Shown piece by piece: positions 11,586-39,117 of a stretch of DNA of 64,000 nt. Numbering within the stretch: the stretch's first letter is position 1; every line of letters starts with the position of its first letter. The notes under the pieces are model-generated. The model worked only from the letters and a program-made list of their open reading frames with translations, had not been told where the DNA came from and made no database searches. Source of the stretch: Candidatus Nomurabacteria bacterium (GTDB lineage: Bacteria; Patescibacteriota; Minisyncoccia; Phycocordibacterales; UBA9973); contig JAHFNH010000003.1 of assembly GCA_023267435.1 (NCBI GenBank), positions 12,717 through 76,716 of the forward strand. Direction: 5' to 3'. The translations under genes and the position numbers were made by a program.

Positions 11586-12667
11586 TATTGTGTTGGTGTT
11601 GATATTGGTGTTTTTAAATATTTTTCAATATTCGCTTTATGTTCATCGTAAGTCACCGCGCAATGAGTCACATGATCTTTGTCATGTAAATAATACAAGC
11701 AATCAGTTTTGGTTGGATTCAACACTGCTTCAATGGCCGGTGTTCCTGGATTGGAGATCGGATGCGGAGGAAGGCCTGCATTTTTATAGGTATTGTAAGG
11801 CGAAATAGATTTTTTATCAGCAATACTAATAGGTGCCCACCAACCCTTACCCTTATCTCCTCGAACGTACTGTAAAGTAGCATCGACAGAAAGCGGAATT
11901 TTTTGATTTAAACGATTTAATAAAATACCGGCAATCAGTGGCATGTCTGCATCATTAGCCGCTTCCCTTTGCACAATCGAGGCTATGGTTAACCCTTTGG
12001 TCCATTGGATATTTTGAGCCTGAAAATCAGTCAAATAACCTGCAAAATTTTCATTAAATTTAGCCACTAATCTCTTAGCAACAGCCTGCGGTGTTTCGCT
12101 AACTGGAATCAAATATGTGTCAGGAAAATAAACTCCTTCAACATAATCATATTTTGTTTTTGTATAAATATTTATCCAATTTTTCTTTTGCAATTTTGTC
12201 CAACCTAAATTTACTGCGAGAAGATCAGCAATCTCTTCTTTACGTAATCCTGGAGGAATAACTACCCATTTCATATACGGCTTACTGTGAAGCATTTTAG
12301 AAACTTGCGCGAGCTTCATGTTTAAAGTTAGCTTGTATGCTCCGGGTATAATATCACCTTTAGTCTTAGAAAATATTGCAGTGAAATCGTCTTTATTTTT
12401 TATATAATTCTGATCAAGAAGATTTTGTGTTATTTGATCCAATGTCGCATTTAGCGGAACAATAAACCGATCTGGGGTAACTGTCGGAGTGATAACTGGC
12501 ACAGTTGGTGAAACAACTGGCGTTGTTTGCGCAATATTTTGCGCATTCACAGATAAACCACCCAGAAACATCAAGGCAATTAAAGGTAGTAATACAAGAA
12601 GATTTTTAAGTATTTTTTGCATATTGTTTACAGTGTTCATTATACCAAAATAAAGCAAAATACTCAC
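11585..12667 (-). CDS. mltG: endolytic murein transglycosylase MltG (YceG family)
   Basis: Signal/TM start followed by VIPPGLRKEEIADLL...SIVQREA...YNTY...GLPPHPI, the YceG-like domain motifs. Confidence 0.8.
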   Translation of the reverse strand: MSILLYFGIMNTVNNMQKILKNLLVLLPLIALMFLGGLSVNAQNIAQTTPVVSPTVPVITPTVTPDRFIVPLNATLDQITQNLLDQNYIKNKDDFTAIFSKTKGDIIPGAYKLTLNMKLAQVSKMLHSKPYMKWVVIPPGLRKEEIADLLAVNLGWTKLQKKNWINIYTKTKYDYVEGVYFPDTYLIPVSETPQAVAKRLVAKFNENFAGYLTDFQAQNIQWTKGLTIASIVQREAANDADMPLIAGILLNRLNQKIPLSVDATLQYVRGDKGKGWWAPISIADKKSISPYNTYKNAGLPPHPISNPGTPAIEAVLNPTKTDCLYYLHDKDHVTHCAVTYDEHKANIEKYLKTPISTPTQ

Positions 12668-12703
12668 TTTTTAAAGTGAGTATTTTGTGAGAGAAATTAT
12701 TTT

Positions 12704-13243
12704 CTATTGAACTGCATTTACAGTTGCTTTTGCATCTGTTTTTGTACCAATTACCTTAGTATCTAATTTCTTATTCACCTTTTTAGCTACATGTACAACC
12801 TCAACTTTTTTAGTAACCATTTTTACATTTTTAGCTGTCATAATATTTGTCGTCTTATCAAGATCTCCAGAAATAATAACTTTTTGTCCGACAATTAAAT
12901 CAGATGGCACGGCAACTGCCCCATCTTTCGTGTATACAGTTGAAGTATCTGTTTTAACTTCTACCGAAGTAACTATTTTTGTTTTTATATTTTTTATATC
13001 CACTGTAAAACCTGAAGTGTCTACAGCAGAAATAACTCCTACAATATTATTATCCTTTACACTTTTAATACCTTTTTCATTTTTGTTAACTTTTTCAATT
13101 TTTCCAGCTTTATGCTGTTTCTGGAAAGTTGGTTGTGTATCTTTAATACCTAAATCCTGTGGAGTTGCGGCAAATACTGCAGTACCTCCGACTAATAACG
13201 AAAATGCGAGTGCGCCTGTTGCGATATGTTTTTTATATTTCAT
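12704..13243 (-). CDS. secreted protein with a conserved beta-rich domain, paralogous to the CDSs at 30571-31008 and 34692-35213
   Basis: Signal peptide MKYKKHIATGALAFSLLVGGTAVFAA. The C-terminal region DLIVGQKVIISGDLDKTTNIMTAKNVKM aligns with DLVVGKQVSVTGTANPDGSLTAQSVQI. Confidence 0.6.
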   Translation of the reverse strand: MKYKKHIATGALAFSLLVGGTAVFAATPQDLGIKDTQPTFQKQHKAGKIEKVNKNEKGIKSVKDNNIVGVISAVDTSGFTVDIKNIKTKIVTSVEVKTDTSTVYTKDGAVAVPSDLIVGQKVIISGDLDKTTNIMTAKNVKMVTKKVEVVHVAKKVNKKLDTKVIGTKTDAKATVNAVQ

Positions 13244-13370
13244 AATTTTTTTAATAAATTAATAATTTCCGCCAGGGGGCGGATCAGCCTGCTGGCTGAA
13301 ATAAGCTAATAAATTTATACACCTTGACCTTAAGTATATATGAATATATTACATTCTATGGATGAAGTTA

Positions 13371-14399
13371 TCATGAAGAGATTGGCAGTGAGATAATCAC
13401 ATTTGTACCCTTATTTTCATGGCTTTTTATGGAGATAGTGCCTTTATGGTTTTCAATAATTTTCTTGGAAAGGGTCAGCCCTAAGCCCGCGCCATCTGTG
13501 TTTCGCGAAGCATCACCTCGAAAAAAAGGATCAAAAATCTTTTCAATAATTTCTTTTGAAATACCATAACCAGTATCGCTGATAGTAAGCACATATTTAT
13601 GTGAAACTATCTTGTCTGATATTGATATCGTTCCATTGGGTTCCGTGTATTTAATAGCATTGTCTAAAATATTATAGAATACGCGACCGAGATCAATTTT
13701 ATTTCCAAAGATATTTGCTAATGATTCCAAATTTGTTTCGATCTTTATTTCTTTCACTTGAGCTAAATTCTTATTTTTTTCCACAATAGATCTCACCAAT
13801 TCACCGATAGAAATAAGTTCGTATTCCATCTGTACTGTTGTGCCATATTTTGATATATCCAGTAAACTATTACTGAGTTTTGAAAATTCCCTCATTTCAT
13901 CCAAAGTATTTTCTAAAGTTTTCTTGGCCGAAACAAGATCTAGTTTTTTATTATTCAAATTCACCTCAAGACCGGAGATAACGACCGCAATAGGAGTGCG
14001 AAGTTCATGGGAAGCATCAGCGATAAATCTCTTTTGCTTTTGCATGTTCAACTTGATCGGCTCAAGTGTTTTATAAGTAAGCAAGAATCCTAATATAATA
14101 ATAAAGAAAATTAAAAGAGCGTCTATAGTCAAAAAACGATTCAGTAAAATATCTTGAGCTCTATCTACTATCACTTGAGCAATGTCAGGATCAGGTATAT
14201 TTTCAAAAATTGATGTGGAAAGATTTGAAAGAATCGTATTGTAAAGCATAATACTTGAACCGCCCAAAATAACTATTGCCGTAATGGAATAATAAAAAGT
14301 GAGTCTAAGTCGCGCTACGAAAAATTCGTCAATCTTATTATTAACCTTCCATTTTGTAACCGACTCCACGAATTGTTTGTATGATTTTTGCATTGTCAT
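13371..14399 (-). CDS. two-component sensor histidine kinase
   Basis: Two TM helices, the H-box ADASHELRTPIAV, and HATPase motifs NAIKYTEPNG...DTGYGIS...GLGLTL. Confidence 0.85.
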   Translation of the reverse strand: MTMQKSYKQFVESVTKWKVNNKIDEFFVARLRLTFYYSITAIVILGGSSIMLYNTILSNLSTSIFENIPDPDIAQVIVDRAQDILLNRFLTIDALLIFFIIILGFLLTYKTLEPIKLNMQKQKRFIADASHELRTPIAVVISGLEVNLNNKKLDLVSAKKTLENTLDEMREFSKLSNSLLDISKYGTTVQMEYELISIGELVRSIVEKNKNLAQVKEIKIETNLESLANIFGNKIDLGRVFYNILDNAIKYTEPNGTISISDKIVSHKYVLTISDTGYGISKEIIEKIFDPFFRGDASRNTDGAGLGLTLSKKIIENHKGTISIKSHENKGTNVIISLPISS

Positions 14400-15009
14400 G
14401 AATTTTTTTTCTTAGATTTTTTATATGCACATCGACAGTGTTACTAAAAGACGAATCTGCAAAGTCCCATGCATGAGAATAAAGTTCATCTCGAGTAACA
14501 ACTTTGTTTAAGTGATGCATCAGATATTCGAGCACCATAAATTCTTTCAAGGTGAGAAAAACTAGTTTACCTTTATAAGTTACCGTCCTACTTATCGTAT
14601 TTATACTGATATCCCCAGAAGTAAGTATATCAGGAAAAGAATGTTTTGGACGTCGCAAAAGCGCATGAACGCGGGCCAGAAGTTCTTTAAAAGCGAAAGG
14701 TTTCGCTAAATAATCATCAGCACCGGCATCTAGACCAATAACTTTGTCATCTGTAGTATCCAATGCCGTAAGCATCAGCACGGGAATCACAATACCATTC
14801 TCCCGCCAATGAATACAAATAGAAACTCCGTCTTTCCCGGGAAGCATTCTGTCTAAAATCACTAAGTCATATTCATTATGATTTACCATAATTCTGCGCT
14901 CAGCAGCAATTCCCTCTTCGATCACATCGACAGCATAACCTTCCTGTACAAGGCCTTGTTTCAGATTTTCTGCCAATTTTTGATTGTCCTCAACCACTAA
15001 TATTTTCAT
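14341..15009 (-). CDS. OmpR-family response regulator
   Basis: MKILVVEDNQKLAENL...DLVILDRMLPGKDG is the receiver domain. A winged-helix C-terminus follows (TIRGVGYKM). It overlaps the HK ORF by 59 nt. Confidence 0.88.
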   Translation of the reverse strand: MKILVVEDNQKLAENLKQGLVQEGYAVDVIEEGIAAERRIMVNHNEYDLVILDRMLPGKDGVSICIHWRENGIVIPVLMLTALDTTDDKVIGLDAGADDYLAKPFAFKELLARVHALLRRPKHSFPDILTSGDISINTISRTVTYKGKLVFLTLKEFMVLEYLMHHLNKVVTRDELYSHAWDFADSSFSNTVDVHIKNLRKKIHDNAKIIQTIRGVGYKMEG

Positions 15010-15067: not shown

Positions 15068-16075
15068 GTGTCACATAAAACTCAAGGTAAAAGATCGGTC
15101 ATAGCAGCGCTTTTGGGCAATATCTTTGTCACTTTTATTAAAACAGTGGTTGCCTTTTTTTCCGGTTCCGCCAGTATGTTCGCCGAAAGCGTGCACAGTT
15201 TCGCCGATACTCTAAACCAATCTCTTCTATTGGTCGGCTTAAAAAGATCTAAGAAACCAGCTGATAGTGATCGAGGTTATGGTTATGGTATTGAAAGATT
15301 TTTTTGGTCTTTGATATCAGCCTGCGGAATTCTTTTTATTGGTGCCGGTATCACTGTCTACCATTCAACAATTTCTTTAATCAATTACGACAGCGGTATA
15401 GTTTCTAGTTTTAGTTATTTTATTATTCTTGTTTTATGTATTTCTTTTGTTATCGAAGGAATAACTTTGTTCATTGCTTTCAAAGAATTAAAAGGCAGTG
15501 AAAAATTTTCAAAGAAAATTTTTCTTGACGCTGACCCGGTCACTCTCGCTGTCGTTTACGAAGATGGGGCTGCTGTCCTGGGTGTCTTCGTCGCCCTCAT
15601 TGCGCAGTTTTTAATGTATTTCACAGGCAATGGTATTTACGACTCGATCGCTGGAATAATCATCGGTCTCATTCTTGGATTTTTGGCAGTTCTTCTGATA
15701 AGGAAAAATCACTTGTATATCATCGGTAAATCTTTAGATCCAAAAATAGTGGAAGAAATAACAGAACTTTTATTGGAAGATCCTTGCATCGAAAATATTT
15801 CTGAATTTAAATCCGTCGCTGTCGACATCAATCAATACAGAATATACACCACCGTCGAATGGAATGGTTCCCCTCTTTATGAAGAGATCTACAAAGCCGG
15901 AGATTTGAGAGAAGAATTCGACGAGATAAAAAATGACTTCAGTGAATTCACAAAATTGATGTTTAAGATGACTGACCGTATTCCCCGCCTCGTCGGAAAT
16001 CATATAGACAAGATAGAAAAAAAAATTAAAGAAAAATTCCCTCAGATTTTATACGTAGATATAGAAATAAATTAA
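15068..16075 (+). CDS. cation diffusion facilitator (CDF) family metal efflux transporter
   Basis: GTG start. SASMFAESVHSFADTLNQ is the CDF TM2 HxxxD-like motif. Six TM helices plus a cytoplasmic C-terminal domain. Confidence 0.8.
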   Translation: MSHKTQGKRSVIAALLGNIFVTFIKTVVAFFSGSASMFAESVHSFADTLNQSLLLVGLKRSKKPADSDRGYGYGIERFFWSLISACGILFIGAGITVYHSTISLINYDSGIVSSFSYFIILVLCISFVIEGITLFIAFKELKGSEKFSKKIFLDADPVTLAVVYEDGAAVLGVFVALIAQFLMYFTGNGIYDSIAGIIIGLILGFLAVLLIRKNHLYIIGKSLDPKIVEEITELLLEDPCIENISEFKSVAVDINQYRIYTTVEWNGSPLYEEIYKAGDLREEFDEIKNDFSEFTKLMFKMTDRIPRLVGNHIDKIEKKIKEKFPQILYVDIEIN

Positions 16076-27878: not shown

Positions 27879-28490
27879 TTATTCTTTATCGGCAAATACT
27901 ACAAGTCTATAAGGACGGCCTTTCTTCACACTATTCCAAATCCCCTCACAAGTAACAAGATTCAGGTGTGCCTTTCCATCGGTTGAACCGAATACATCTG
28001 AAGCATCTGCGTTGGCATCATATTTTCTACTTTCTCGTACAACAAAAGAAATAGTTGCACCCTTATCATCTTCGACGATAATTTTGTCTCCATTTTTTAA
28101 TTTATATAAATTATCGAATACCGCTGGAATGCTGTTTTTCCAACCGAAGTGCCCGGCGATAACAGCACTGCCATTATCGCCAGGATGTGGTCCCAGGTCG
28201 AACCAAGCGACATTATCTGGACCCTTTGGCACTTCCATCGCCCCATCAGAAGTAAGACCCACATCTTCAACAACAGCATCGACATTAATATTCGGAATCT
28301 TTAGACGCACTGGCAACCCAAAATTATCTTTCCCCTGTCCCAAAGGAATAGTGGTTTTTACAACAAGCGGAATCAAACTAGTATGAGTTGAATCTTTAAA
28401 GAAAAGAAATAAAAATAAACCCAAGAAAATAAAGAATCCCAGAAAAATAATTATTAATATTCTTTTTGATAAATTTTTTGATAAATTCAT
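27879..28490 (-). CDS. sortase (class F-like transpeptidase)
   Basis: N-terminal TM anchor. Catalytic His in AVIAGHFGW and the TLXTC motif HLNLVTCEG. Confidence 0.8.
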   Translation of the reverse strand: MNLSKNLSKRILIIIFLGFFIFLGLFLFLFFKDSTHTSLIPLVVKTTIPLGQGKDNFGLPVRLKIPNINVDAVVEDVGLTSDGAMEVPKGPDNVAWFDLGPHPGDNGSAVIAGHFGWKNSIPAVFDNLYKLKNGDKIIVEDDKGATISFVVRESRKYDANADASDVFGSTDGKAHLNLVTCEGIWNSVKKGRPYRLVVFADKE

Positions 28491-28582: not shown

Positions 28583-30259
28583 CTATATTTTATGCTTTCT
28601 TAGAACCATAACAAATGAAATAGAAACTAATGCGAGCAAACCAAACAATAATAATATAACAACATTCCATGGAGCAGGAGGAAGTCCTGTCTTAGGAAGA
28701 CTAGGAGCGGCCACCACCACTGTAGCAAGAGAATAATCGATCGCAGTAAGACCATTTGCACTTCCCTCAGCAGTTCCAGTATTCGTAGTTGTCTGTGTAA
28801 GATTTGTTAAACAAGTGAAAGTCCATGTTTCATTACTTTCAAGTAAATCGTTTTTATTAAGATCTCCTGGGTGTCCTACGACACGGCCTGGTAGACCAGT
28901 ACATTTGTCATCAGTGATACTAACATTACTTAATGGCGCAGTACCAGGATTGGTTACGGTATATGTGTAAGTAACTGCTCCACCATTTGCAGGAAGAACA
29001 AAAACGTTTGGCTTTTTAACTACATGGATTAGTGGTGGTATTATTGGAACTCCGACAACGACAGTTGCATTTGCAGTATCGATTGCGGTAAAACCATTAG
29101 CATCACCAGTTGCAGTGACAGTATTGGTAGTGGTTTGGGAGAGTGTTGTGGTACAAGTGTATGTCCAAGTTTCATTGATATCAAGTTTGGAATCATTATT
29201 TGAATCACCTGAAATGAAACCTACAGTAGAACATGCATTGTCAGAAACAATAACATTACTCATTGGAACTGTTCCGATATTCTTAACTGTATAAGTATAA
29301 GTAACTGGTCCAGGTCCTAGAGGTAATGCTAATGGAGTTGGAACTTTTAAAACACTGATCAAAGGTGGAACAGATGCTGTTGTAAGAGGACCACCACCTT
29401 GGGGAGCTGTTGAGGGAGGGGTTGGAGGGGTCACATATACAGGAATTGAAACAGTATGACTACCAGCGCCGTCTAGTGTAACAGACGCCGTATTTGAAAA
29501 TGCTCTTCCGTGTAATGTTGCACCAGCTAATAAAGCAACGCTTGTTTGATCTAAAATATTTCCTTCAAAAACAGATGTTGTTTCAAGTGTAGTTGCACCA
29601 CCGACAACCCAAAAAATATTGGAAGCCTGTGCACCACCACTTAAAAGAATGCTTTTAGCAGAACTGATATCAAGAGTTCCTGGTACTCTAAATATCCATA
29701 CATCACTTGCTGTTCCTGTAAGATGAATATCGCCTGTAATAATTACATTACCAGGACCAGAAAATGAATAAACTCCAGGAGCGATTGTTAAACCAGCAAG
29801 ATCCCAAGTTCCAGATCCGGTTCCAATATTTGTAGCATCAAATGGTCGAACAGTATTATTGTTAGCATCAGTATAAGCTGCTCCTGCAGCACCGACAGCA
29901 TTATCTACAAAAGTTTTATTGGCTGGTACAGTATCACCCGGCATAGCACAAGCAGCAAAACCGGTAACATTATATCCGGAATCAACTTCGTATATTTTTC
30001 CACCGCCAGTCATTGATGTACATGTCAAACCAGCAATGTTTGAACCTGCAAGTGGACTCACTCCAACATTTCCAGTAATTATAGTTGATGCGGGAGTAGC
30101 ATCAGTTACACCTGCATATGACAAAATTGAGAAACTATCTGCTCCTCCAAGATTAACAGTTGCCGGGCTAGCAAAAGCGTGCGCTTTAGTAGAGCCAGTG
30201 AAATTAAATACAAGAGAAAACAAAACAACTAAGAAAGAAAACTTTTTAAGTATTTTCAT
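28583..30259 (-). CDS. LPXTG-anchored surface protein with an N-terminal ice-binding-like (DUF3494) beta-helix domain and two DUF11-like repeats
   Basis: Signal peptide. AQASNIFWVVGGATTLETTSVFEGNILDQTSVALLAGATLHGRAFS...VTLDG matches the DUF3494 consensus. Two TYTYTV(K/T)N.GT.P.SNV...ETWT(Y/F)TC repeats. C-terminal LPKTG at 28685-28699, followed by a hydrophobic helix and RKHKI. Confidence 0.85.
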   Translation of the reverse strand: MKILKKFSFLVVLFSLVFNFTGSTKAHAFASPATVNLGGADSFSILSYAGVTDATPASTIITGNVGVSPLAGSNIAGLTCTSMTGGGKIYEVDSGYNVTGFAACAMPGDTVPANKTFVDNAVGAAGAAYTDANNNTVRPFDATNIGTGSGTWDLAGLTIAPGVYSFSGPGNVIITGDIHLTGTASDVWIFRVPGTLDISSAKSILLSGGAQASNIFWVVGGATTLETTSVFEGNILDQTSVALLAGATLHGRAFSNTASVTLDGAGSHTVSIPVYVTPPTPPSTAPQGGGPLTTASVPPLISVLKVPTPLALPLGPGPVTYTYTVKNIGTVPMSNVIVSDNACSTVGFISGDSNNDSKLDINETWTYTCTTTLSQTTTNTVTATGDANGFTAIDTANATVVVGVPIIPPLIHVVKKPNVFVLPANGGAVTYTYTVTNPGTAPLSNVSITDDKCTGLPGRVVGHPGDLNKNDLLESNETWTFTCLTNLTQTTTNTGTAEGSANGLTAIDYSLATVVVAAPSLPKTGLPPAPWNVVILLLFGLLALVSISFVMVLRKHKI

Positions 30260-30570: not shown

Positions 30571-31008
30571 TTATTGTGTTGAAGTGGATGCAGGAGCGGG
30601 ATTGGTTGGCATTGCTGGTCTGATTTGCACTGACTGAGCGGTTAAACTGCCATCTGGATTTGCTGTACCGGTAACGCTTACTTGTTTACCAACAACTAAA
30701 TCTGTCGATACTCCACTGACATTTTTTTCAATGGGAGTCTTGTCTGTATAAAAAATTATTTTAGAACTTCCGTCTCTAAGTTTTAGAGTAATACTTTGAG
30801 CGTCTTTAGAGAGAATTTCACCCACAGTCATTCCTCCAAAATTTCCACCATTCCTCATTCCACCAGCAGTACTTCTACCATTCAAACCAAAAGCTTGACT
30901 TCCCTGACCTCTAGCAGGTATTTGACTCTTACCATAAACCATACCTATATAAAACACTCCTACCAAAACTAAAATACCTATGACAACTAAACCAATTTTT
31001 TTATTCAT
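30571..31008 (-). CDS. small membrane-anchored protein with a Gly/Met-rich segment and a beta-rich domain (paralog of 34692-35213 and 12704-13243)
   Basis: One TM (IGLVVIGILVLVGVFYIGMVY), GGMRNGGNFGGM, then ...DLVVGKQVSVTGTANPDGSLTAQSVQIRPAMP. Confidence 0.65.
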   Translation of the reverse strand: MNKKIGLVVIGILVLVGVFYIGMVYGKSQIPARGQGSQAFGLNGRSTAGGMRNGGNFGGMTVGEILSKDAQSITLKLRDGSSKIIFYTDKTPIEKNVSGVSTDLVVGKQVSVTGTANPDGSLTAQSVQIRPAMPTNPAPASTSTQ

Positions 31009-31077: not shown

Positions 31078-32301
31078 TTACTCATACCTAAGGGCATCGA
31101 TTGGATTTAAATTAGCCGCCCGACGCGCAGGATAATATCCAAAAACAATACCGATTCCAGCCGAAACCGCAAAAGCTAAAAGAACAGTGGGTAAAGAAAC
31201 TTGCGTTTGAATAATTCCAGAATATGTTACCGCCAGAGATATCAGCCACCCCAAAATAACACCTATCACACCACTGATAAACGTCAACATAACAGCCTCA
31301 AGTAAAAATTGAGTATTAATGTCTTTCTTTTTTGCACCGATTGCTTTACGTAAACCGATTTCTCTTGTACGTTCCGTAACGGTAGTCAGCATCATATTCA
31401 TAATTCCAATACCGCCAACCAAAAGAGAAATTCCAGCTACTGCTGCTAAAAAAAGCGTAAATGTACCCGTGACTGATGAAGCCGTAGCAATAATGTCTGC
31501 CTGATTTAATATATTAAAATCAGCTTTAGTAGGATCAGAAATATTGTGACGAATCAATAATAAATTTGTCACATCAGATTGTACTTGCGCTGACACATCA
31601 GAGCTTGTTGCCGAGATATCAATCTCGCTTAAATATTTATTTCCCGTAAGATATCTTTGAGCTGTGGTATAAGGAATAAAAATTGTATCATCACTATTAC
31701 TAAAACCAGAACCTCCTTTTGCTTTAGTTATACCAATAACAACATATTCACTTCCTGAAATACGAATCGTTTGACCAATAACACCTGTAACACCCACACC
31801 AAACAGATCATCCCTGGCAGTGGGTCCCAACACAGCAACTTTTGAACCACTTGTAATATTTTGAGTTGATAAAAAATCACCTTCATCAATAGATACATTT
31901 CGGACTGTAGAGTACGCTGGTTCTGTACCTATAATACTAGTATTTGTATTAGTGCCGGTACCGACAACTTGCTTACGCGAAGTTACTTCACGGACCACTC
32001 CAACCACATCAGAAATTTGAGACTCAATCGCATCAGCATCTTCTACTGTTAATGTCTGTGCTCCTCCACGTCCGGCACTTGGTCCACCGAAAGTGCGTGC
32101 AGCTCCAGGCATAACCATAACTAAGTTTGCACCAATAGACTGAATGCTTGAAGATATAGAATTCTGCGCACCTTGACCAATCGCAGTCATAGCAATAACA
32201 GAAGCTATACCGATTACAATTCCAAGCATCGTAAGTCCTGTACGTACTTTGTTGGCAAATAAAGCGCTAGATGTTTCACTTATGATATCTGATATTTTCA
32301 T
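31078..32301 (-). CDS. ABC transporter permease, MacB/FtsX-like family
   Basis: 407 aa. N-terminal TM, a periplasmic domain of about 200 aa, and three C-terminal TM helices. The start overlaps the ATPase stop by 4 nt. Confidence 0.85.
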   Translation of the reverse strand: MKISDIISETSSALFANKVRTGLTMLGIVIGIASVIAMTAIGQGAQNSISSSIQSIGANLVMVMPGAARTFGGPSAGRGGAQTLTVEDADAIESQISDVVGVVREVTSRKQVVGTGTNTNTSIIGTEPAYSTVRNVSIDEGDFLSTQNITSGSKVAVLGPTARDDLFGVGVTGVIGQTIRISGSEYVVIGITKAKGGSGFSNSDDTIFIPYTTAQRYLTGNKYLSEIDISATSSDVSAQVQSDVTNLLLIRHNISDPTKADFNILNQADIIATASSVTGTFTLFLAAVAGISLLVGGIGIMNMMLTTVTERTREIGLRKAIGAKKKDINTQFLLEAVMLTFISGVIGVILGWLISLAVTYSGIIQTQVSLPTVLLAFAVSAGIGIVFGYYPARRAANLNPIDALRYE

Positions 32302-33005
32302 ATGTTTTTTATAACTCTTTTTAAATGGCCATTCTCATTTTCAGTAAGTACGCCATCGCGAATAAATAAAATCCTATCGGCATGTTCAGCAATATATTGT
32401 TCATGAGTGATAAGTACGATTGTTCTGCCATGTTCTTTGTTTAATTTTTGAAAAGTGCCCAAAACTATTTCTCCTGTTTTTGAATCGAGGTTACCTGTAG
32501 GCTCGTCAGCTAAAATTAGTGACGGATTATTTACCAAAGCTCGTGCAATAGCAACACGTTGAATCTGTCCACCAGAAAGCTGATTTGAAAGATGATAGAA
32601 ATGCGATTCATTCAGACCCGCAGCAAAAAGGGCTTCTTTGGCGCGTTTTTCTCTTTCTTTTGTTTCTATTCCATCATAAACAAGCGGTAACATTACATTT
32701 CTGAGGACTGTAGTACGTGGTAATAAGTTGAATGATTGAAACACGAAACCAATTTTATCTTTGCGAATATCTGCTAGTTCATCATCTGAAAGAGTTGAAA
32801 CATCCTTGTCATCTAGAAGATACGTGCCACTCGTTGGATTATCCAATGCACCTAAAATATGCATAAGAGTCGACTTACCAGATCCAGAAGGTCCCATAAT
32901 AGCAACAAATTCTCCATCCTTTATAGTAAAGCTCACACCTTTAAGGGCCTGAAACTCAATGTCTCCAGATTTATATGTTTTTGTAATATCTTTTATTTCA
33001 ATCAT
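32298..33005 (-). CDS. ABC transporter ATP-binding protein (MacB/LolD-type)
   Basis: Walker [10 protein letters not shown], signature LSGGQIQR, Walker [12 protein letters not shown]. Confidence 0.9.
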
Positions 33006-33009
33006 AACT

Positions 33010-34686
33010 TTAATTACCTGGAATTCTTACTGCCCCACCTCCTCTGTTTCCACCAGCTCCACCGAGCAAACTAGATGTTGCTGTTTTTGCAGCCGTTGGT
33101 AATATTGTTCTTGTCACAATTTCATCTCCTTCTTTTATTCCAGAAACTATTTCAGTCTCTGAATTATTTGAAAGTCCTGTTGTTACAGTAATTTTATTCG
33201 GAATAATTGTCGAAATAGAACCTGGCAATCCATCTGTTGGTGCAGGTAGTGGTGCATCAAACATCTCAACATAACTTGAACCACCTTGTCTTTTCACTGC
33301 ACTGTTTGGTACTACTAAGACATCTTGTTTTACATTTGTGATAATAGAAGCTGAGACACTCATTCCGGGTTTTACCGTACTATCTTGATTATCAAAACTA
33401 ATTTTTACATTATAAGTCACAACTCCTTGCGTTACTGTACCTACAGTATCAATTTGTGCCACTTCTCCTGCAATTGAAAAATTCGGAATTGCATCAAAAG
33501 TAAGAGTAGCTTTTTGACCCAATTTTATCTTAGCTACATCTACCTCATTCAATGAGATAGTAGCCAATTGTTTAGTGGTAATGATCGTCCCTAAAATTGT
33601 TCCAGAACTTGCAGTTTCACCGACATTCACAGGAACACTTGCAACGGTACCTTCAAAAGGGGCAACGATGTTGTAATAAGATAGATTATCCCTGGCATCC
33701 TGTAAAGCATTTTCTTTTTGCTTTACTGTGAGTTGCGCTGTTTGTATATCAAGCACATCTGCACCGGATTGTAATTTACTCAACGCTTCTGTATTCTGAA
33801 TGATAGTTCTATCTGAATCTGTATTTACTTGAGCTTGATTTTGTAAAGTAAGCTGGTATGAATTATAACTTGCGCCGTAACTGCTTGCCTGAGTATTTGG
33901 TATTGCCACTGTCCACTCATTTATTCCACTGGAAGCATAATTGTTCGGAAACTGAATATATAGACCAAAAGTTCCTAAAGCAACAGGGGTAGTTGTATTT
34001 ACTGTACCGCTTCCATTTTCAAGGCCAGAAACTGAGAGATATGCTCCACTGCCACTATTATGAACAAGAATATCGTAACTTCCCTCCGTTGTTCCGGTGT
34101 AAGTTCCGCTAATTGTAGGAGCGGTGAAATTTGCGCTACTAGTTGAAGTAGATTTCGGAACAGCAACTATTCCGCTATTCAAAAAACTGCTGTGCGCATT
34201 TTTAACAACAAGATCTTGATTTTTCTTTGCATCTTGCGCAGCCGCAATAGCATTTTGATACTGAATAACAGATAATTTATCCGCTGGCTCTTGTAATTTT
34301 GCTAAAGAAAGATTGGCTGCATCAAGATTAATTTGCGCATCTCTAAGAGTTTTCTGAGCATCTTTACTGTCGAGAGAAAAAAGAAGTTTACCACTTCCTG
34401 CCTGATCACCTGGTTTGACATAAATATGAGTAATCGTACCAGAGACATTAGGTTTTAAATCAATCTGACTTGAAACGGAAACTTGTCCACTGCCGGTAAT
34501 GGAAGATACAATAGTTCCTTTAGTAACAGCTGACAAAACATATCGCGTATCCCCTGCGGTGCTAGTAATTTTTCCATAGCCCCAATACCCAACCCCAACA
34601 ACAATCAAAAGTATAACAATACTACTTATCAAGTGGTCAAGAGCATAATCTTTAATTTTTTGTAAATATGACATTATTTTTTCCAT
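33010..34686 (-). CDS. HlyD/MacA-family periplasmic adaptor (membrane fusion protein), long form with a Ser/Thr/Gly-rich insertion
   Basis: N-terminal TM, coiled-coil region (AQKTLRDAQINLDAANLSLAKLQ...), beta-barrel/lipoyl-like regions, and a Gly-rich C-terminal tail. Confidence 0.8.
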   Translation of the reverse strand: MEKIMSYLQKIKDYALDHLISSIVILLIVVGVGYWGYGKITSTAGDTRYVLSAVTKGTIVSSITGSGQVSVSSQIDLKPNVSGTITHIYVKPGDQAGSGKLLFSLDSKDAQKTLRDAQINLDAANLSLAKLQEPADKLSVIQYQNAIAAAQDAKKNQDLVVKNAHSSFLNSGIVAVPKSTSTSSANFTAPTISGTYTGTTEGSYDILVHNSGSGAYLSVSGLENGSGTVNTTTPVALGTFGLYIQFPNNYASSGINEWTVAIPNTQASSYGASYNSYQLTLQNQAQVNTDSDRTIIQNTEALSKLQSGADVLDIQTAQLTVKQKENALQDARDNLSYYNIVAPFEGTVASVPVNVGETASSGTILGTIITTKQLATISLNEVDVAKIKLGQKATLTFDAIPNFSIAGEVAQIDTVGTVTQGVVTYNVKISFDNQDSTVKPGMSVSASIITNVKQDVLVVPNSAVKRQGGSSYVEMFDAPLPAPTDGLPGSISTIIPNKITVTTGLSNNSETEIVSGIKEGDEIVTRTILPTAAKTATSSLLGGAGGNRGGGAVRIPGN

Positions 34687-34691
34687 AACTA

Positions 34692-35213
34692 TTATTGATT
34701 AGAACTATTAATTTGAGTTGGAACGGTCGAGGTAGTAGAAGGAAAAATAGGAGGAAAAGGCATAATTCTTATTAACTTTGCTTCAATCTGCCCTTGTGAA
34801 TTTGGAGAACCGACAACAACTACATTTTCATCAACCTTTAGATCGTTAATGGAAATACTATCTCTGACATCTATTATTTTTGTATCATTACTTGTAATTA
34901 CCACTTTTTCAGTATTATCCCTATCTTGAACTATAATATTTGGCAATTCAATTTTTATAATTTTACCTATAGCTCCATGGGCATTAGGAAAATTTCCCAT
35001 CATGCCACCAAAATAACCACGTCCATTCATCATACCAAAATTACGCCCATAATTCTCCCCCCAATCACGACCAAATGAAGCTTTATGAAAACCTACATAT
35101 ACTCCGGCTTGAAAGATAAGTGAAACAACAACAAGAATTCCCACAATCAACAAAACTCCAAAAACTTTTTTTGATTCTAAAACTTTTCTAATATTTTCTT
35201 TAATTTCTTTCAT
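34692..35213 (-). CDS. small membrane-anchored protein with a Gly/Met-rich segment (paralog of 30571-31008)
   Basis: One TM, FGMMNGRGYFGGMMGNF, then ...VVVVGSPNSQGQIEAKLIRIMP. Confidence 0.65.
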   Translation of the reverse strand: MKEIKENIRKVLESKKVFGVLLIVGILVVVSLIFQAGVYVGFHKASFGRDWGENYGRNFGMMNGRGYFGGMMGNFPNAHGAIGKIIKIELPNIIVQDRDNTEKVVITSNDTKIIDVRDSISINDLKVDENVVVVGSPNSQGQIEAKLIRIMPFPPIFPSTTSTVPTQINSSNQ

Positions 35214-35223
35214 AAAAATAAAA

Positions 35224-35625
35224 CTATGCTATTAATAATTTATGACGAGTTCGAATATTTCGCGCCATATAACGTAAGGATAATACAAATAAAAAAACTA
35301 AGGATAAAGACAAAATTAAATTTGTCATAGGTAATGATTCAATCATAGATAAAATGATTTCTTTCCAAAAATAAACAGCCTTGCTATTAGAAAACATTAG
35401 GGATAAATAATCATAAAAGCCAGAACTATAAAAATCAGAAACTAACTGCCTAATAAGCACAAAAAAGCCTAAAAGAGAAAATATTCCTGTAACAGAATAA
35501 ACCCATATTTTAATGTTATTATTTCTTTTTTCCTTAATAGAGATAGCGTTGAAAATATTCTCCGAAAGACTGCTCTCAGGACAAAACACGGCCTTTTGAA
35601 AAATTTTAATTAAATTCTTATCCAT
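35224..35625 (-). CDS. small two-TM membrane protein, putative anti-sigma factor
   Basis: 133 aa, lying 17 nt downstream of the ECF sigma gene. The call rests on position plus topology only. Confidence 0.4.
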   Translation of the reverse strand: MDKNLIKIFQKAVFCPESSLSENIFNAISIKEKRNNNIKIWVYSVTGIFSLLGFFVLIRQLVSDFYSSGFYDYLSLMFSNSKAVYFWKEIILSMIESLPMTNLILSLSLVFLFVLSLRYMARNIRTRHKLLIA

Positions 35626-35642
35626 ATCTCTATATACGTAGA

Positions 35643-36215
35643 CTAATTTGATTTTGGTGCAATCATCTTTCTTATTTGCAAAATAGCTCGAAGATGATGG
35701 CTTTTTATTGTGTTTAATGGTCTCTCAAGAACCTGAGATATTTCATCAAAAGTCATTTCTTCTTGATAATGAAGAATTAAAACTGTTTGAAATTGTTCCG
35801 GTAATTTTTCTAATAATGAATTCAATAAATCTACATCTTGTAATTTCTGCAGTATCTCATCGGGTAAAATTGCCTCATCCTTTATGGTTTCTGAGAAATT
35901 ATTTTCTTCATTATCCAAACTAGAAAACGGAATGGAGTTTTTTCTGCGCAAGAAATCAATAACCGTATTTCTAGCTATAGTAAAAATCCAGGTTTTAAAA
36001 CTGGATTTGTTTTGATTAAACTTTTCCAAACTTTTCCAAACTTTAACAAAAATTTCTTGAGTAATATCATCAGCTTCGTTATTTCCGACAAAACGCCGAA
36101 CAAAATTATAAATTTGTGGAGTATATTTATCAATAAGCTCCTTCAATGCAGTGTCATCGCCAGAGACATATAAACTAATTAATTCTGAATCTTTATCCAT
36201 TGTAATTTTAGGCAA
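35643..36215 (-). CDS. ECF-type RNA polymerase sigma-70 family factor
   Basis: Region 2 (DDITQEIFVKVWKSLEKF...FKTWIFTIARNTVIDFLRR) and region 4 (MTFDEISQVLERPLNTIKSHHLRA). Confidence 0.85.
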   Translation of the reverse strand: MPKITMDKDSELISLYVSGDDTALKELIDKYTPQIYNFVRRFVGNNEADDITQEIFVKVWKSLEKFNQNKSSFKTWIFTIARNTVIDFLRRKNSIPFSSLDNEENNFSETIKDEAILPDEILQKLQDVDLLNSLLEKLPEQFQTVLILHYQEEMTFDEISQVLERPLNTIKSHHLRAILQIRKMIAPKSN

Positions 36216-37740
36216 ATCCTGGAAAGAAATCTTTGTGAATATGGCTTGATTTCACTCCCATACCGAGAAGCATGTTTTCAAAAGTTTCGCACATGCCATG
36301 TGTTCCGGAAAGATAGAAGTGTCTTTCTAAGAAATCAGGAACTTCTTGTTTAACCATTTTCGCATCTACAAAACCTGTTTTACCATGCCATATTTCACCT
36401 GGTGGTACTGGATCCGTCACTGTATAAACAATTTTAAAGCCAAGTTCTACGGCTGATTGATCTAAAATATTTTCATAAGCAACATCAGCTGAAGTTCGAT
36501 TTGAATAAAACATGACTACATCCCTTTCTTGTTTTTTATCTATCATATACTTAACCATGCTTCTAAAAGGAGTGACACCGATTCCTCCGGCCATGAAAAC
36601 AAGTTTCTTATTTACATCTTTCGGTAAGACGAATTCCCCTGCCAGTTGCGAAGCGATGATAGTGTCCTGACCCTCTTTCATATTTAAAAGCTTGTTCTTG
36701 AAACTGCTACCGTTCGCATAAAATTTTATACCTATTCTGATTTCTCTTTCAGTAGGAGAAGAAGCTATTGTGAAATATCTTCGATTTCCTCGAGAGTCCG
36801 GCCACTTGTGACCGAGAGTCCATTCCAAATACTGCCCTGGTCTAAAATAAAACGGATGATCCGGAGAAAATACGAAATCATAAGTATTCTGCGCGACTTT
36901 TATTTTTTGCTTCAATACTAAGACAAACTTTTGTTTTGGGCTGACAATATAGGAAAATACGTTCCCAACTAAGAGAGATAACTCAGGCGTGGAATATAAC
37001 GATCCGATGTGCATAATTGGAGCAGACAAGAATCCGCAGATTGATCCATATAACATTCGTAAAATTCTTGTCGGAGGAGTAGTAAGAGGTTCTGTCAGCA
37101 TAACAAATGCGAAAAACAAAAGTGGAGAATAAAAAATAGATCTGACAAGAATGTTAAAACCACTGGCAAAATCAAAAGCTTGAGTAGCAACAATAGTAAT
37201 CAGAGCTATGGCAAAAAAAGTAAGAACCATATCGAATCTTCTCACCTTTCTTGTGATGAGCATTCCTCCAATAATAACGAAGGGTGCCATTGCTAAAGTT
37301 CCTACCCACCAGCTGGCGGATTGGCCCATAGTGATGGAAGTAAGTGCCACAGAAAGTGCAACTGGATTGAAAACATGCTTATTATCGAGCGCAAAAATAT
37401 ATTTTGATGCCATAGCCCAGACGGAAACCCAGAATAAAAATCCCCAATAAGGAAGACTGACAAAATCCTTTGCAGGGGTGACTATCAAAACTAAAATAAA
37501 AGCAGTGATAAAAGCGGATTCAACATTTGTTGGAACGCCTAAAAATGAAGCAAATATTTTATTTGAGATAAAACAGATTGCGGTGACAAAAACAACTTCT
37601 GAAAAAAACATAACTGGAGTGAAAGGCAAGATTCCAAAATAAGAAAGTATTAATCCTCCAGCAATCATAAAGAGTAATGCGTAAAGCACTAATCGATACA
37701 TTGTTACTTTGTTTAAAAGATTATCTATTATTTTTATCAT
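36208..37740 (-). CDS. membrane oxidoreductase: N-terminal polytopic domain fused to a ferredoxin-NADP-reductase-like FAD/NAD(P)-binding domain
   Basis: About 260 aa of TM domain. RRYFTIAS is an RxYS FAD motif. GGIGVTPF is the NAD(P)-binding GGxGxxP motif. Confidence 0.75.
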   Translation of the reverse strand: MIKIIDNLLNKVTMYRLVLYALLFMIAGGLILSYFGILPFTPVMFFSEVVFVTAICFISNKIFASFLGVPTNVESAFITAFILVLIVTPAKDFVSLPYWGFLFWVSVWAMASKYIFALDNKHVFNPVALSVALTSITMGQSASWWVGTLAMAPFVIIGGMLITRKVRRFDMVLTFFAIALITIVATQAFDFASGFNILVRSIFYSPLLFFAFVMLTEPLTTPPTRILRMLYGSICGFLSAPIMHIGSLYSTPELSLLVGNVFSYIVSPKQKFVLVLKQKIKVAQNTYDFVFSPDHPFYFRPGQYLEWTLGHKWPDSRGNRRYFTIASSPTEREIRIGIKFYANGSSFKNKLLNMKEGQDTIIASQLAGEFVLPKDVNKKLVFMAGGIGVTPFRSMVKYMIDKKQERDVVMFYSNRTSADVAYENILDQSAVELGFKIVYTVTDPVPPGEIWHGKTGFVDAKMVKQEVPDFLERHFYLSGTHGMCETFENMLLGMGVKSSHIHKDFFPGFA

Positions 37741-38474
37741 ATATATTTTTGAAAACCTTCCGTCATAGTCGCTACGCCATTTTTATCAATCATATATCCT
37801 TCAAAACCGGAAAGATTATTTATAAAATTAATTCCCTCCCGCCCCATCACGAAGGCTGCTGTGGCAAATCGATCTGCTTCATAGACATTCGGACCTATTA
37901 CTGTCAGGCTGACAACCTCATCAAGAGGATCATTTTTATCTTTTGGATTATAAATATGCTTCCCTCTGATATACGTGCCACTCGTAGCAATTCCTTTATC
38001 TTTTAAGTATACAACTTTTATAACCTGTTTTAAATCAAAAGGATTCGCTATGCCTATCGCCCAAGGCTTATCTTCTTTATTTTTACCTTCCACTTCAATA
38101 TCCCCTCCTGCTTCAACATAAAAATCTTTGATTCCATTTTTCCTGAGCATTTCGGCAGCATTATGTATCGCCCAGCCTTTCACTGTCCCTGATGGGTCGC
38201 AAAATCCATCATTCATGATATCGAAAAATCCATTAGTTTCTTTTTTTGTTTCTTCAGATAATCTAAGAACTTCTTTCATGTCCTCACTATATTCTCTCTT
38301 TTTAATCTTATCTTTATTTATTTTTGTTATTTCACTCGTATCTTTGTAGATAGAAAATTTTTCATCTATATAAGTGAAATAATTAAAAACATTTTCAAAT
38401 ATTTCTTTATCAATTGATTCGTCTGGAATTTCTATTATTACAGGCATGCCCATAATAATTCTTGTTTCTTTCAT
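37737..38474 (-). CDS. apbE: FAD:protein FMN transferase (ApbE family)
   Basis: GFFDIMNDGFCDPSGTVKGWA...GIATSGTY are ApbE signature motifs. 245 aa. Confidence 0.8.
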   Translation of the reverse strand: MKETRIIMGMPVIIEIPDESIDKEIFENVFNYFTYIDEKFSIYKDTSEITKINKDKIKKREYSEDMKEVLRLSEETKKETNGFFDIMNDGFCDPSGTVKGWAIHNAAEMLRKNGIKDFYVEAGGDIEVEGKNKEDKPWAIGIANPFDLKQVIKVVYLKDKGIATSGTYIRGKHIYNPKDKNDPLDEVVSLTVIGPNVYEADRFATAAFVMGREGINFINNLSGFEGYMIDKNGVATMTEGFQKYI

Positions 38475-38475
38475 A

Positions 38476-39117
38476 TTATTGTTTTGCTTGTGTTAATGCA
38501 TAAGCCAATGATTGCATGAATGCATCGCTAGTATATGTCGCACCGGAGACTCCGTTAATATTCGCAGACTGTGCAGAAATGGCTTCTTGTTTTAAGACAG
38601 GCATTGAATAATCATATATCTGCTGCGATCTTCTTGGACCTGGTTCAGTGGATGGATATGTAATGTTGGAAAGTTTTCCATTTGATATTATGGCTGTAAC
38701 TTTTACATAACCGGAATACGCATATTCATTGCTGCCAACGTAAGTTCCATCTGCATAAAGACCCTTAGGCTTAGTCACAGGTGGTGTCGTAGTAGGAGTA
38801 GTTTGAGTTGTAGGTTTTGTGGTTGGTGTGGTTGTCGGTTTAGTATTTGTTTTTGGAGTAGTTTTAGTTGGAGGAATAAAATCACCTTCTTCGTCAAATG
38901 GATTACTATCTTCATCACCTCCTGAAATACTATTAGGTACCTGATATACCTGAGTGCTGGAAGATGTTGTATTTAAAGCATCTGTCGTAGTCTTCTTTCC
39001 CACTTCAGTGACAGGAACATAAGGAGCCACGTAACTCAAACTACCATTGGGGCCGTAATAAACGACATACAACGCGAAACTTCCTATAACAAAAGATGAT
39101 AGTAAAAACTTTTTCAT
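38476..39117 (-). CDS. membrane-anchored extracytoplasmic FMN-binding domain protein (predicted ApbE substrate)
   Basis: N-terminal TM, Thr/Pro-rich linker, and an FMN_bind domain with GVSGATYTS, the flavinylation [S/T]GA[S/T] motif. Confidence 0.75.
   Translation of the reverse strand: MKKFLLSSFVIGSFALYVVYYGPNGSLSYVAPYVPVTEVGKKTTTDALNTTSSSTQVYQVPNSISGGDEDSNPFDEEGDFIPPTKTTPKTNTKPTTTPTTKPTTQTTPTTTPPVTKPKGLYADGTYVGSNEYAYSGYVKVTAIISNGKLSNITYPSTEPGPRRSQQIYDYSMPVLKQEAISAQSANINGVSGATYTSDAFMQSLAYALTQAKQ

Follow-up and report, generated by a model that had tools for sequence, protein, structure and literature searches.

Results

Three DUF5666 proteins encoded beside regulators and a transporter

We analyzed a 64,000-nt stretch of a Candidatus Nomurabacteria genome (GenBank assembly GCA_023267435.1, contig JAHFNH010000003.1, positions 12,717 to 76,716; G+C content 34.9%), referred to here as the window. 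It encodes three small proteins that carry the uncharacterized domain DUF5666 and lie next to signaling or transport genes of the cell envelope. Protein A (12704..13243, 179 aa), protein B (30571..31008, 145 aa) and protein C (34692..35213, 173 aa) are all encoded on the minus strand. The first-pass annotation of this DNA, made from the letters alone, had described a C-terminal module common to these three open reading frames (ORFs) and a paralogous family of exported beta-domain proteins. The ORFs are found at exactly those coordinates and the top Pfam match of each is DUF5666 (PF18914). The domain covers residues 65-143 of A (nt 12815-13051), residues 59-130 of B (nt 30619-30834) and approximately residues 80-152 of C (nt 34758-34976). 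Protein B scores above the Pfam gathering score of 27 bits (27.3 bits, E 4.3e-6), A is just under it (25.9 bits, E 1.2e-5) and C, taken singly, is clearly under it (15 bits, E 0.032). Orthologs gave E-values as low as 1e-7 to 1e-8 against the DUF5666 model. It was matched by 25 of 28 A orthologs and 35 of 36 B orthologs (both at E ≤0.1), and by 15 of 28 C orthologs (E ≤0.01). The three proteins and most of their orthologs are single-domain members of the family.

Pairwise BLASTP aligned B with C at 8e-15 (30% identity across 145 aa, including the transmembrane (TM) segment and linker) and A with B at 0.011, and found no significant match between A and C. In hhalign comparison of the ortholog families, B and C matched with 98.9% probability (E 1.6e-17) over the TM segment, linker and domain; the probability was 88% for A and C (E 3e-6) and 49% for A and B (E 1.7e-4). 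By these alignments B and C are paralogs along their full length, and A is kin to both through the domain alone. The family described in the first-pass annotation is thus backed by the DUF5666 matches and by hhalign. Searching every ORF of the window with a hidden Markov model (HMM) built from the three domains turned up no further copy. The B family is large, with 7336 representatives of 50%-identity clusters at E ≤1e-3 and 1075 at E ≤1e-30. Some members carry more than one domain: P0241 (1331 aa) has 16 tandem DUF5666 repeats, and P0251 and P0255 (about 265 aa) are B-type proteins with two tandem domains.

Proteins B and C belong to a cassette of seven genes on the minus strand in the order sigma factor, putative anti-sigma factor, C, adaptor, ATPase, permease and B. 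The successive gaps are 17, 10, 5, 4, -4 and 69 nt. The first gene encodes an extracytoplasmic function (ECF)-type sigma factor (35643..36215; Pfam Sigma70_r2 and r4_2). The next encodes a 133-aa protein (35224..35625) with two TM helices (residues 38-63 and 94-122), for which no Pfam match was found. Its outside loop of ~30 aa is its best-conserved part. We putatively assign this protein as the anti-sigma factor, based on its position after the sigma gene and its conservation in 37 loci (see below). C lies between it and the adaptor gene, and B begins 69 nt past the permease gene, both as the first-pass annotation had placed them.

The three genes between C and B encode a membrane-fusion protein (MFP; HlyD/MacA-like) adaptor of 558 aa (33010..34686; Pfam match; NCBIfam RND_mfp 4.3e-45, MacA 5e-22), the pump ATP-binding cassette (ABC) ATPase (32298..33005; Pfam) and a MacB-type permease with four TM helices by hydropathy (31078..32301; Pfam MacB_PCD and FtsX). 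The MacB core with a four-TM FtsX permease, the separate ATPase and the N-terminally anchored HlyD/MacA-type adaptor identify a MacAB-like (type VII ABC) pump. An outer-membrane factor is not expected for such a pump in a monoderm. The adaptor has an N-terminal TM helix. At about residues 165-300 it also has an insertion of ~130 aa, not covered by Pfam, that is rich in Ser, Thr, Gly and Asn. Its C-terminal tail is Ser/Thr-rich and then Gly/Arg-rich (…GGAGGNRGGGAVRIPGN); this composition is kept across the orthologs and resembles that of the B linker.

Protein A is encoded after a two-component system on the same strand. An OmpR-type response regulator (RR, 14341..15009; Pfam Response_reg and Trans_reg_C) is followed by a histidine kinase (HK, 13371..14399; Pfam HisKA and HATPase_c). 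Pfam and hydropathy analysis of the kinase indicate TM helices at residues 39-57 and 83-115, an outside loop of ~25 aa between them, and no HAMP or sensor domain. The A gene begins 127 nt past the HK stop codon, in agreement with the first-pass annotation. In other genomes this spacer is just 30-100 nt, and A is therefore probably co-transcribed with RR-HK. Immediately 3' of A is a strong terminator-like hairpin (12656..12687, minus strand), whose stem spans 14 bp and whose tail is T-rich. A GC-rich hairpin (TCCGCC-CCCT-GGCGGA at 13268-13283, minus strand) is located inside the HK-A spacer. In promoter and terminator scans of the cassette the counts were not above those of shuffled sequence; the terminator past A and the spacer hairpin were the standouts.

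Predicted fold and anatomy of the proteins

AlphaFold2 was run on A and B with their family alignments. The model of B consists of a TM helix, a disordered segment (residues 30-57; predicted local distance difference test (pLDDT) <50) and a compact beta domain (residues 59-130; pLDDT ~90). That of A has a disordered N-terminal part followed by a beta domain at residues 65-143 (pLDDT >90). Both models show the oligonucleotide/oligosaccharide-binding (OB) fold, which is defined by a closed barrel of five beta-strands and a short helix lying between the third and the fourth. On the strength of the homology among the three proteins we extend the predicted fold to C. A profile search of Protein Data Bank sequences for solved relatives returned spurious weak matches only (0.01 for mercuric reductase, 0.18 for ribosomal protein S1). 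Residues conserved in the OB domain look mainly structural (turn motifs and Gly).

Hydropathy analysis agrees with the first-pass annotation in giving each protein an N-terminal signal or TM segment: residues 6-26 of A, with a VFA|A motif, residues 1-30 of B and residues 10-44 of C. In A the hydrophobic segment (signal peptide or anchor, residues 1-26) is followed by a TPQDLGIK motif, a Lys-rich disordered linker, the OB domain and a Lys-rich tail. No part of the A family is better conserved than the first 35 residues (MKYKK-IATGALA-SLLVGGS-VFA-ATPQDLGIKN; nt 13139-13243, minus strand), whose column majority is 0.87-0.93 versus 0.71 for the OB domain. So high a level is unusual for a mere cleavable signal peptide and suggests that the segment is kept as an anchor or holds a motif for processing or for a specific interaction. 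The TM anchor of B bears the motif F-x-x-G-x-x-x-G and is followed by a disordered linker rich in Gly, Arg, Asn and Gln (residues 29-58, nt 30835-30924), the OB domain and a Pro/Ser/Thr tail. C has a TM anchor with a GxxxG motif; next come a juxtamembrane motif that is conserved (KASFGRxWGENYxRNFG), a linker of Gly, Met and Phe (nt 34977-35084) and the OB domain. In both anchors, the outer end of the helix carries a small-xxx-small motif (B, F19/G22; C, F34/G37/G41).

The linkers of B orthologs are 26-52 residues long and contain 27% Gly, together with Ala, Ser, Arg, Asn and Gln. Met accounts for 2.7%, and His, Cys and Trp are essentially absent. Met reaches 4.6% in the linkers of C orthologs. 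B and C of this genome do contain the Gly/Met-rich stretches described in the first-pass annotation; given these low ortholog values, the Met-richness is peculiar to this genome and is not a trait of the family, whose linkers are Gly-rich.

Conservation of the cassette that carries B and C

To collect B loci, one genome per species was scanned with a seed consisting solely of a peptide motif of the B OB domain. The neighbors were annotated using the proteins of the window as queries. This yielded 65 loci, nearly all from Patescibacteria (Paceibacterota, Nomura-, Kaiser-, Staskawicz-, Wolfe-, Gribaldo-, Harrisonbacteria and others). Two records are labeled Actinomycetes or Thermoleophilia; the nearest relatives are labeled Paceibacterota and Minisyncoccia.

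Sixty loci contained enough DNA to identify the gene before B. In 59 of them it is the MacB-type permease gene (median gap 38.5 nt), and in the sole exception a single gene is inserted between the two. The order HlyD-ABC-permease-B is essentially invariant. The first-pass annotation had proposed to look for co-occurrence with MacB/HlyD genes in related genomes, and had reasoned that family members never linked to transporters or regulators elsewhere would speak against it. The opposite was found, with the linkage conserved across Patescibacteria. No conserved gene was found downstream of B among the 65 loci beyond local synteny, and we therefore consider that the cassette ends at B. The most common downstream family occurs in 12 closely related loci and is pseudouridine-synthase-like from a look at the sequence alone.

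In 52 loci there was room upstream of the adaptor gene to look for the anti-sigma and C genes. They occur together in 37 loci, both are missing in 15, and in no locus is one found alone. The 37 anti-sigma orthologs (34 found by phmmer and three more by HMM) are each followed by a C ortholog. The 15 loci without C have, upstream of the adaptor, another sigma factor with a ~230-aa TM protein, or RR-HK directly adjoining the adaptor gene (only in L041, L053 and L061), or nothing. In all 15, B is retained along with its TM motif. In a variant cassette (L026:2756-4106, L029:2889-4120 and L031:2990-4244; also L036 and L050), the ~230-aa TM protein carries an RPRWQF motif and is encoded after the sigma gene. 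In three variant loci a secreted, non-DUF5666 protein of ~146 aa replaces the anti-sigma factor and C.

Directly downstream of B in the window is the gene for a surface protein (28583-30259, minus strand) with Ice-binding-like and DUF11/DUF7507 domains and an LPKTG sorting signal, followed by a sortase gene (27879-28490). Only the closest relatives, L001 and L002, share this pair, and they have two copies of the surface protein gene.

Conservation of the module that carries A

Scanning metagenomes with the A family yielded 32 loci. Among the 15 that offered more than 1.1 kb of upstream DNA, 13 have RR-HK immediately before A, with the order RR-HK-A conserved. Ten shorter contigs end in an HK fragment upstream of A. 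With recurrence in dozens of genomes, the adjacencies of A, B and C to their neighbors are far beyond chance.

Copper-related and redox-related features

The first-pass annotation had offered, as an analogy, that the proteins resemble Cu(I)/Ag(I) chaperones such as CusF, and had suggested a check for an OB or CusF-like fold. The OB fold was predicted for A and B as described above; beyond this fold class, sequence or profile likeness to CusF was not found. CusF is also a small extracytoplasmic OB-type beta-barrel encoded with an HlyD-family adaptor (CusB). However, it is soluble, has a His/Met/Met/Trp site and works with a resistance-nodulation-division (RND) pump, whereas A, B and C are membrane-tethered and the pump next to B is MacB-type. 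No match to the CusF_Ec profile was found for A, B and C (E ≤1) or for 92 family members (E ≤0.1 for the A and B families, E ≤0.01 for the C family). Aligning the B family to E. coli CusF by hhalign gave 0.1% probability. Among the invariant columns of the A and B families there is not a single Met, His, Cys or Trp; in the C family one His ahead of the OB domain is partly conserved. The transporter is a MacB_PCD and FtsX permease with a separate ABC ATPase instead of the RND protein CusA, and the MacA/RND_mfp-like adaptor scores 27.4 bits on the CusB model, versus a cut-off of 390.

Copper proteins do occur next to a few relatives of B. A cupredoxin is fused to B or follows it in three of the 65 loci (fused in L036:7947-8651; stand-alone and membrane-anchored in L015:2686-3159 and L050:8322-8780), and none is found in the window. 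Among the 150 best cluster representatives, three B-type proteins (P0242, P0259 and P0321) have a C-terminal cupredoxin domain. The canonical type-1 copper ligands in the fusions have the pattern H ... YYCS-x3-HR-x-MGM. Two cation transporter genes lie near A. One, in the window, encodes a cation diffusion facilitator (CDF) efflux protein (15068-16075, plus strand) and is divergent from the RR gene. The other is in L077 (1301-2686), where an NRAMP-like gene, assigned from its N-terminal sequence alone, takes the place of RR-HK upstream of the A ortholog. The other A loci keep neither neighbor.

Three minus-strand genes directly precede the sigma gene of the window and encode an FMN_bind protein (38476-39117), ApbE (37737-38474) and an RnfD-like membrane protein with an NAD_binding domain (36208-37740), the last with an 8-nt overlap with the sigma ORF. 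This trio is an NQR/RNF-like extracytosolic flavinylation system, of the kind described mainly in Actinobacteria and the candidate phyla radiation (CPR) (Méheust et al., 2021; PMC8238504). The trio, or the reductase alone, precedes the sigma cassette in three other loci (L001, L002 and L030) and immediately precedes RR-HK-A in four (L068, L092, L073 and L087). In the reductase-alone cases the contig ends or the remaining genes were undetected. The occurrence of the trio beside both types of module may reflect synteny or may point to a redox-related input. Together with the cupredoxin fusions and neighbors, it gives a weak hint of copper or redox chemistry.

Discussion

Proposed role as accessory subunits

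We regard it as fairly probable that A, B and C serve the envelope machines encoded beside them as dedicated accessory subunits. Published systems, compared below, offer precedents for each element of this proposal. Since the gene linkage is fixed, B is assigned to the pump, C to the anti-sigma factor and A to the histidine kinase. Each OB domain would be held at the outer face of the membrane by the N-terminal hydrophobic segment and a disordered linker of ~30-40 residues. B would serve the MFP/MacB-type ABC pump by modulating its assembly and activity. C would serve the small two-TM anti-sigma factor, and A the sensor-less kinase, in both cases by modulating signaling. The kinase and the anti-sigma factor expose just ~25-30 residues to the outside, and for this reason the tethered OB domain would supply an extracytoplasmic binding surface that these regulators otherwise lack. 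Its target would be a ligand, either envelope-derived or toxic, or else the outside loop of the partner itself. The analysis shows the fold of A and B, the homology by which it extends to C, the topology and the conserved gene linkage; a physical association with these partners and a sensor or adaptor role are inferred.

Several points weigh against this proposal. Gene linkage shows functional coupling and not which role is played: sensor, chaperone, plug, tether or cargo. The loci come from related genomes that are not phylogenetically independent, and the counts overstate the number of independent events. A does not adjoin RR-HK in four loci (L077, L094, L067 and L076). A ligand site was not identified in the OB domain, where conservation is mainly structural. 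The cupredoxin fusions hint at a metal or redox role for which the proposal does not account.

Other explanations

The three proteins could instead be passive envelope proteins that bind the wall or surface, or cargo of the pump, and be merely co-transcribed with the regulators and the pump without modulating them. OB folds often bind oligosaccharides, and the Pro/Ser/Thr-rich tails of B and C, the Lys-rich tail of A and the long linkers resemble wall-spanning segments. The Gly/Arg tail of the pump adaptor is of similar composition. MacB-family systems such as LolCDE act on membrane-anchored proteins, which would suit a cargo. The all-or-none pairing of C with one type of anti-sigma factor is hard to square with a passive wall protein, as is the loss of C with retention of B when the type of regulator changes. 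The TM and juxtamembrane motifs conserved in B and C, like the extremely conserved N-terminus of A, also point to specific protein contacts within the membrane or at its surface. We consider this explanation unlikely.

A second alternative places B and C in one relay. The two proteins would exchange or form heterodimers through their GxxxG TM helices and so report pump activity to the anti-sigma factor, as an ECF analog of flux sensing by BceAB-BceS. This would be consistent with the homology of B and C over the whole length, TM and linker included, with the small-xxx-small motifs of both helices, and with the position of B and C on either side of the pump genes within one tightly spaced operon. 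The replacement of sigma, anti-sigma and C by RR-HK directly upstream of the pump in three loci is an arrangement also seen in Bce-like modules. On the other side, B persists with an unchanged TM motif in the 15 loci that have no C, which indicates that B does not need C, and the role given to the GxxxG motifs is read from the sequence only. Such a relay is likewise unlikely in our judgment.

The least probable alternative is that the OB domains, the Met/Gly-rich linkers or both bind Cu(I)/Ag(I) (or Cu(II)) outside the membrane and pass the metal to the HlyD-family adaptor for export, in the manner of CusF and CusB: the CusF-like gene arrangement, the Met-bearing linkers (at 4.6% in the C family, about twice the typical Met content), the cupredoxins and the CDF and NRAMP-like genes would favor it, but with no CusF profile match, no invariant Met, His, Cys or Trp in the A and B families, a MacB-type pump, few Met residues in the B-family linkers, rare cupredoxins and non-conserved cation transporter genes we think it very unlikely.

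Comparison with known systems

In the rpoE-rseA-rseB operon the genes follow the order sigma factor, anti-sigma factor and exported protein, and exported RseB binds the outside part of the anti-sigma factor. By analogy, C would hold the place of RseB in the gene order. However, RseB is soluble and has another fold, and the periplasmic domain of RseA is sizeable compared to the ~30 exposed residues of the anti-sigma factor described here. CcmE is a membrane-anchored OB-fold heme chaperone that works with the CcmABCD ABC complex. Neither A, B and C nor the A and B families gave a match to CcmE (PF03100) or to BOF/YgiW (PF04076). There is no conserved heme-binding His in the A or B family, and the similarity to these proteins is that of a generic OB fold.

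YsaD and YxeA are small secreted proteins co-transcribed with a Bce-type ABC transporter and an intramembrane-sensing kinase; YsaD alters signal relay and is dispensable for resistance (PMC7438565). The likeness of these Firmicutes proteins (TIGR01655) to the proteins described here is in gene context only, as a small exported protein encoded with an FtsX-domain type VII ABC transporter and a kinase. No TIGR01655 match was found for A, B or C at E ≤1. In the Bce-type systems the permease is the 10-TM BceB, whereas here it is a four-TM MacB with an adaptor; and up to three paralogs are present here, one of them tied to an ECF anti-sigma factor. A Bce-like peptide-antibiotic detoxification module would combine an intramembrane-sensing kinase (two TM helices and a short loop) with a BceB-type permease. 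The kinase of the window has two TM helices, a loop of ~25 aa and no sensor domain, and it does not adjoin the pump.

The pump itself has counterparts in monoderms. The Bacillus pump YknWXYZ is of MFP/MacB type and needs an extra membrane accessory protein (PMC4887032), and MacAB-like pumps with adaptors, such as Spr0693-0695, work in monoderms (PMC5768738). An N-terminally anchored MFP, an ATPase and a MacB-like permease are common to YknWXYZ, Spr0693-0695 and the pump of the window. They differ in that the CPR adaptor bears the large insertion and the Gly/Arg tail. YknW is a polytopic Yip1-family protein and not a tethered OB fold.

In the literature that we searched, DUF5666 appears only as entries in gene or protein lists, with no function or fold described and no fixed association with MacB-type pumps, anti-sigma factors or histidine kinases. 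A search on Patescibacteria and MacB gave nothing relevant. Already known are the domain, as a cataloged DUF, and the ordinary families to which the pump, sigma factor and two-component parts belong. New relative to the searched literature are the OB fold assignment, the three subfamilies with a fixed partner each, and the seven-gene cassette and RR-HK-A module.

Implications for Patescibacteria and for DUF5666

A broader view, which we offer as speculation of low probability, is that DUF5666 OB proteins form a hitherto unrecognized class of tethered extracytoplasmic co-sensors that give input to sensor-less anti-sigma factors and kinases of Patescibacteria, with B and C of the seven-gene cassette coupling the state of the pump to the activity of the ECF sigma factor. 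An extracytoplasmic redox or copper input would be possible because of the recurrent cupredoxin fusions and the NQR/RNF-like trio upstream of both types of module.

These results are a lead about accessory subunits and not a new principle. Patescibacteria have tiny genomes with few regulators and transporters. Many of their lineages have preserved the seven-gene cassette and the three-gene module whole, and the same uncharacterized domain is at the center of each. DUF5666, a family of thousands of sequences, gains a predicted fold, a cellular location and specific candidate partners. The results point to how sensor-less regulators could get their input in Patescibacteria.

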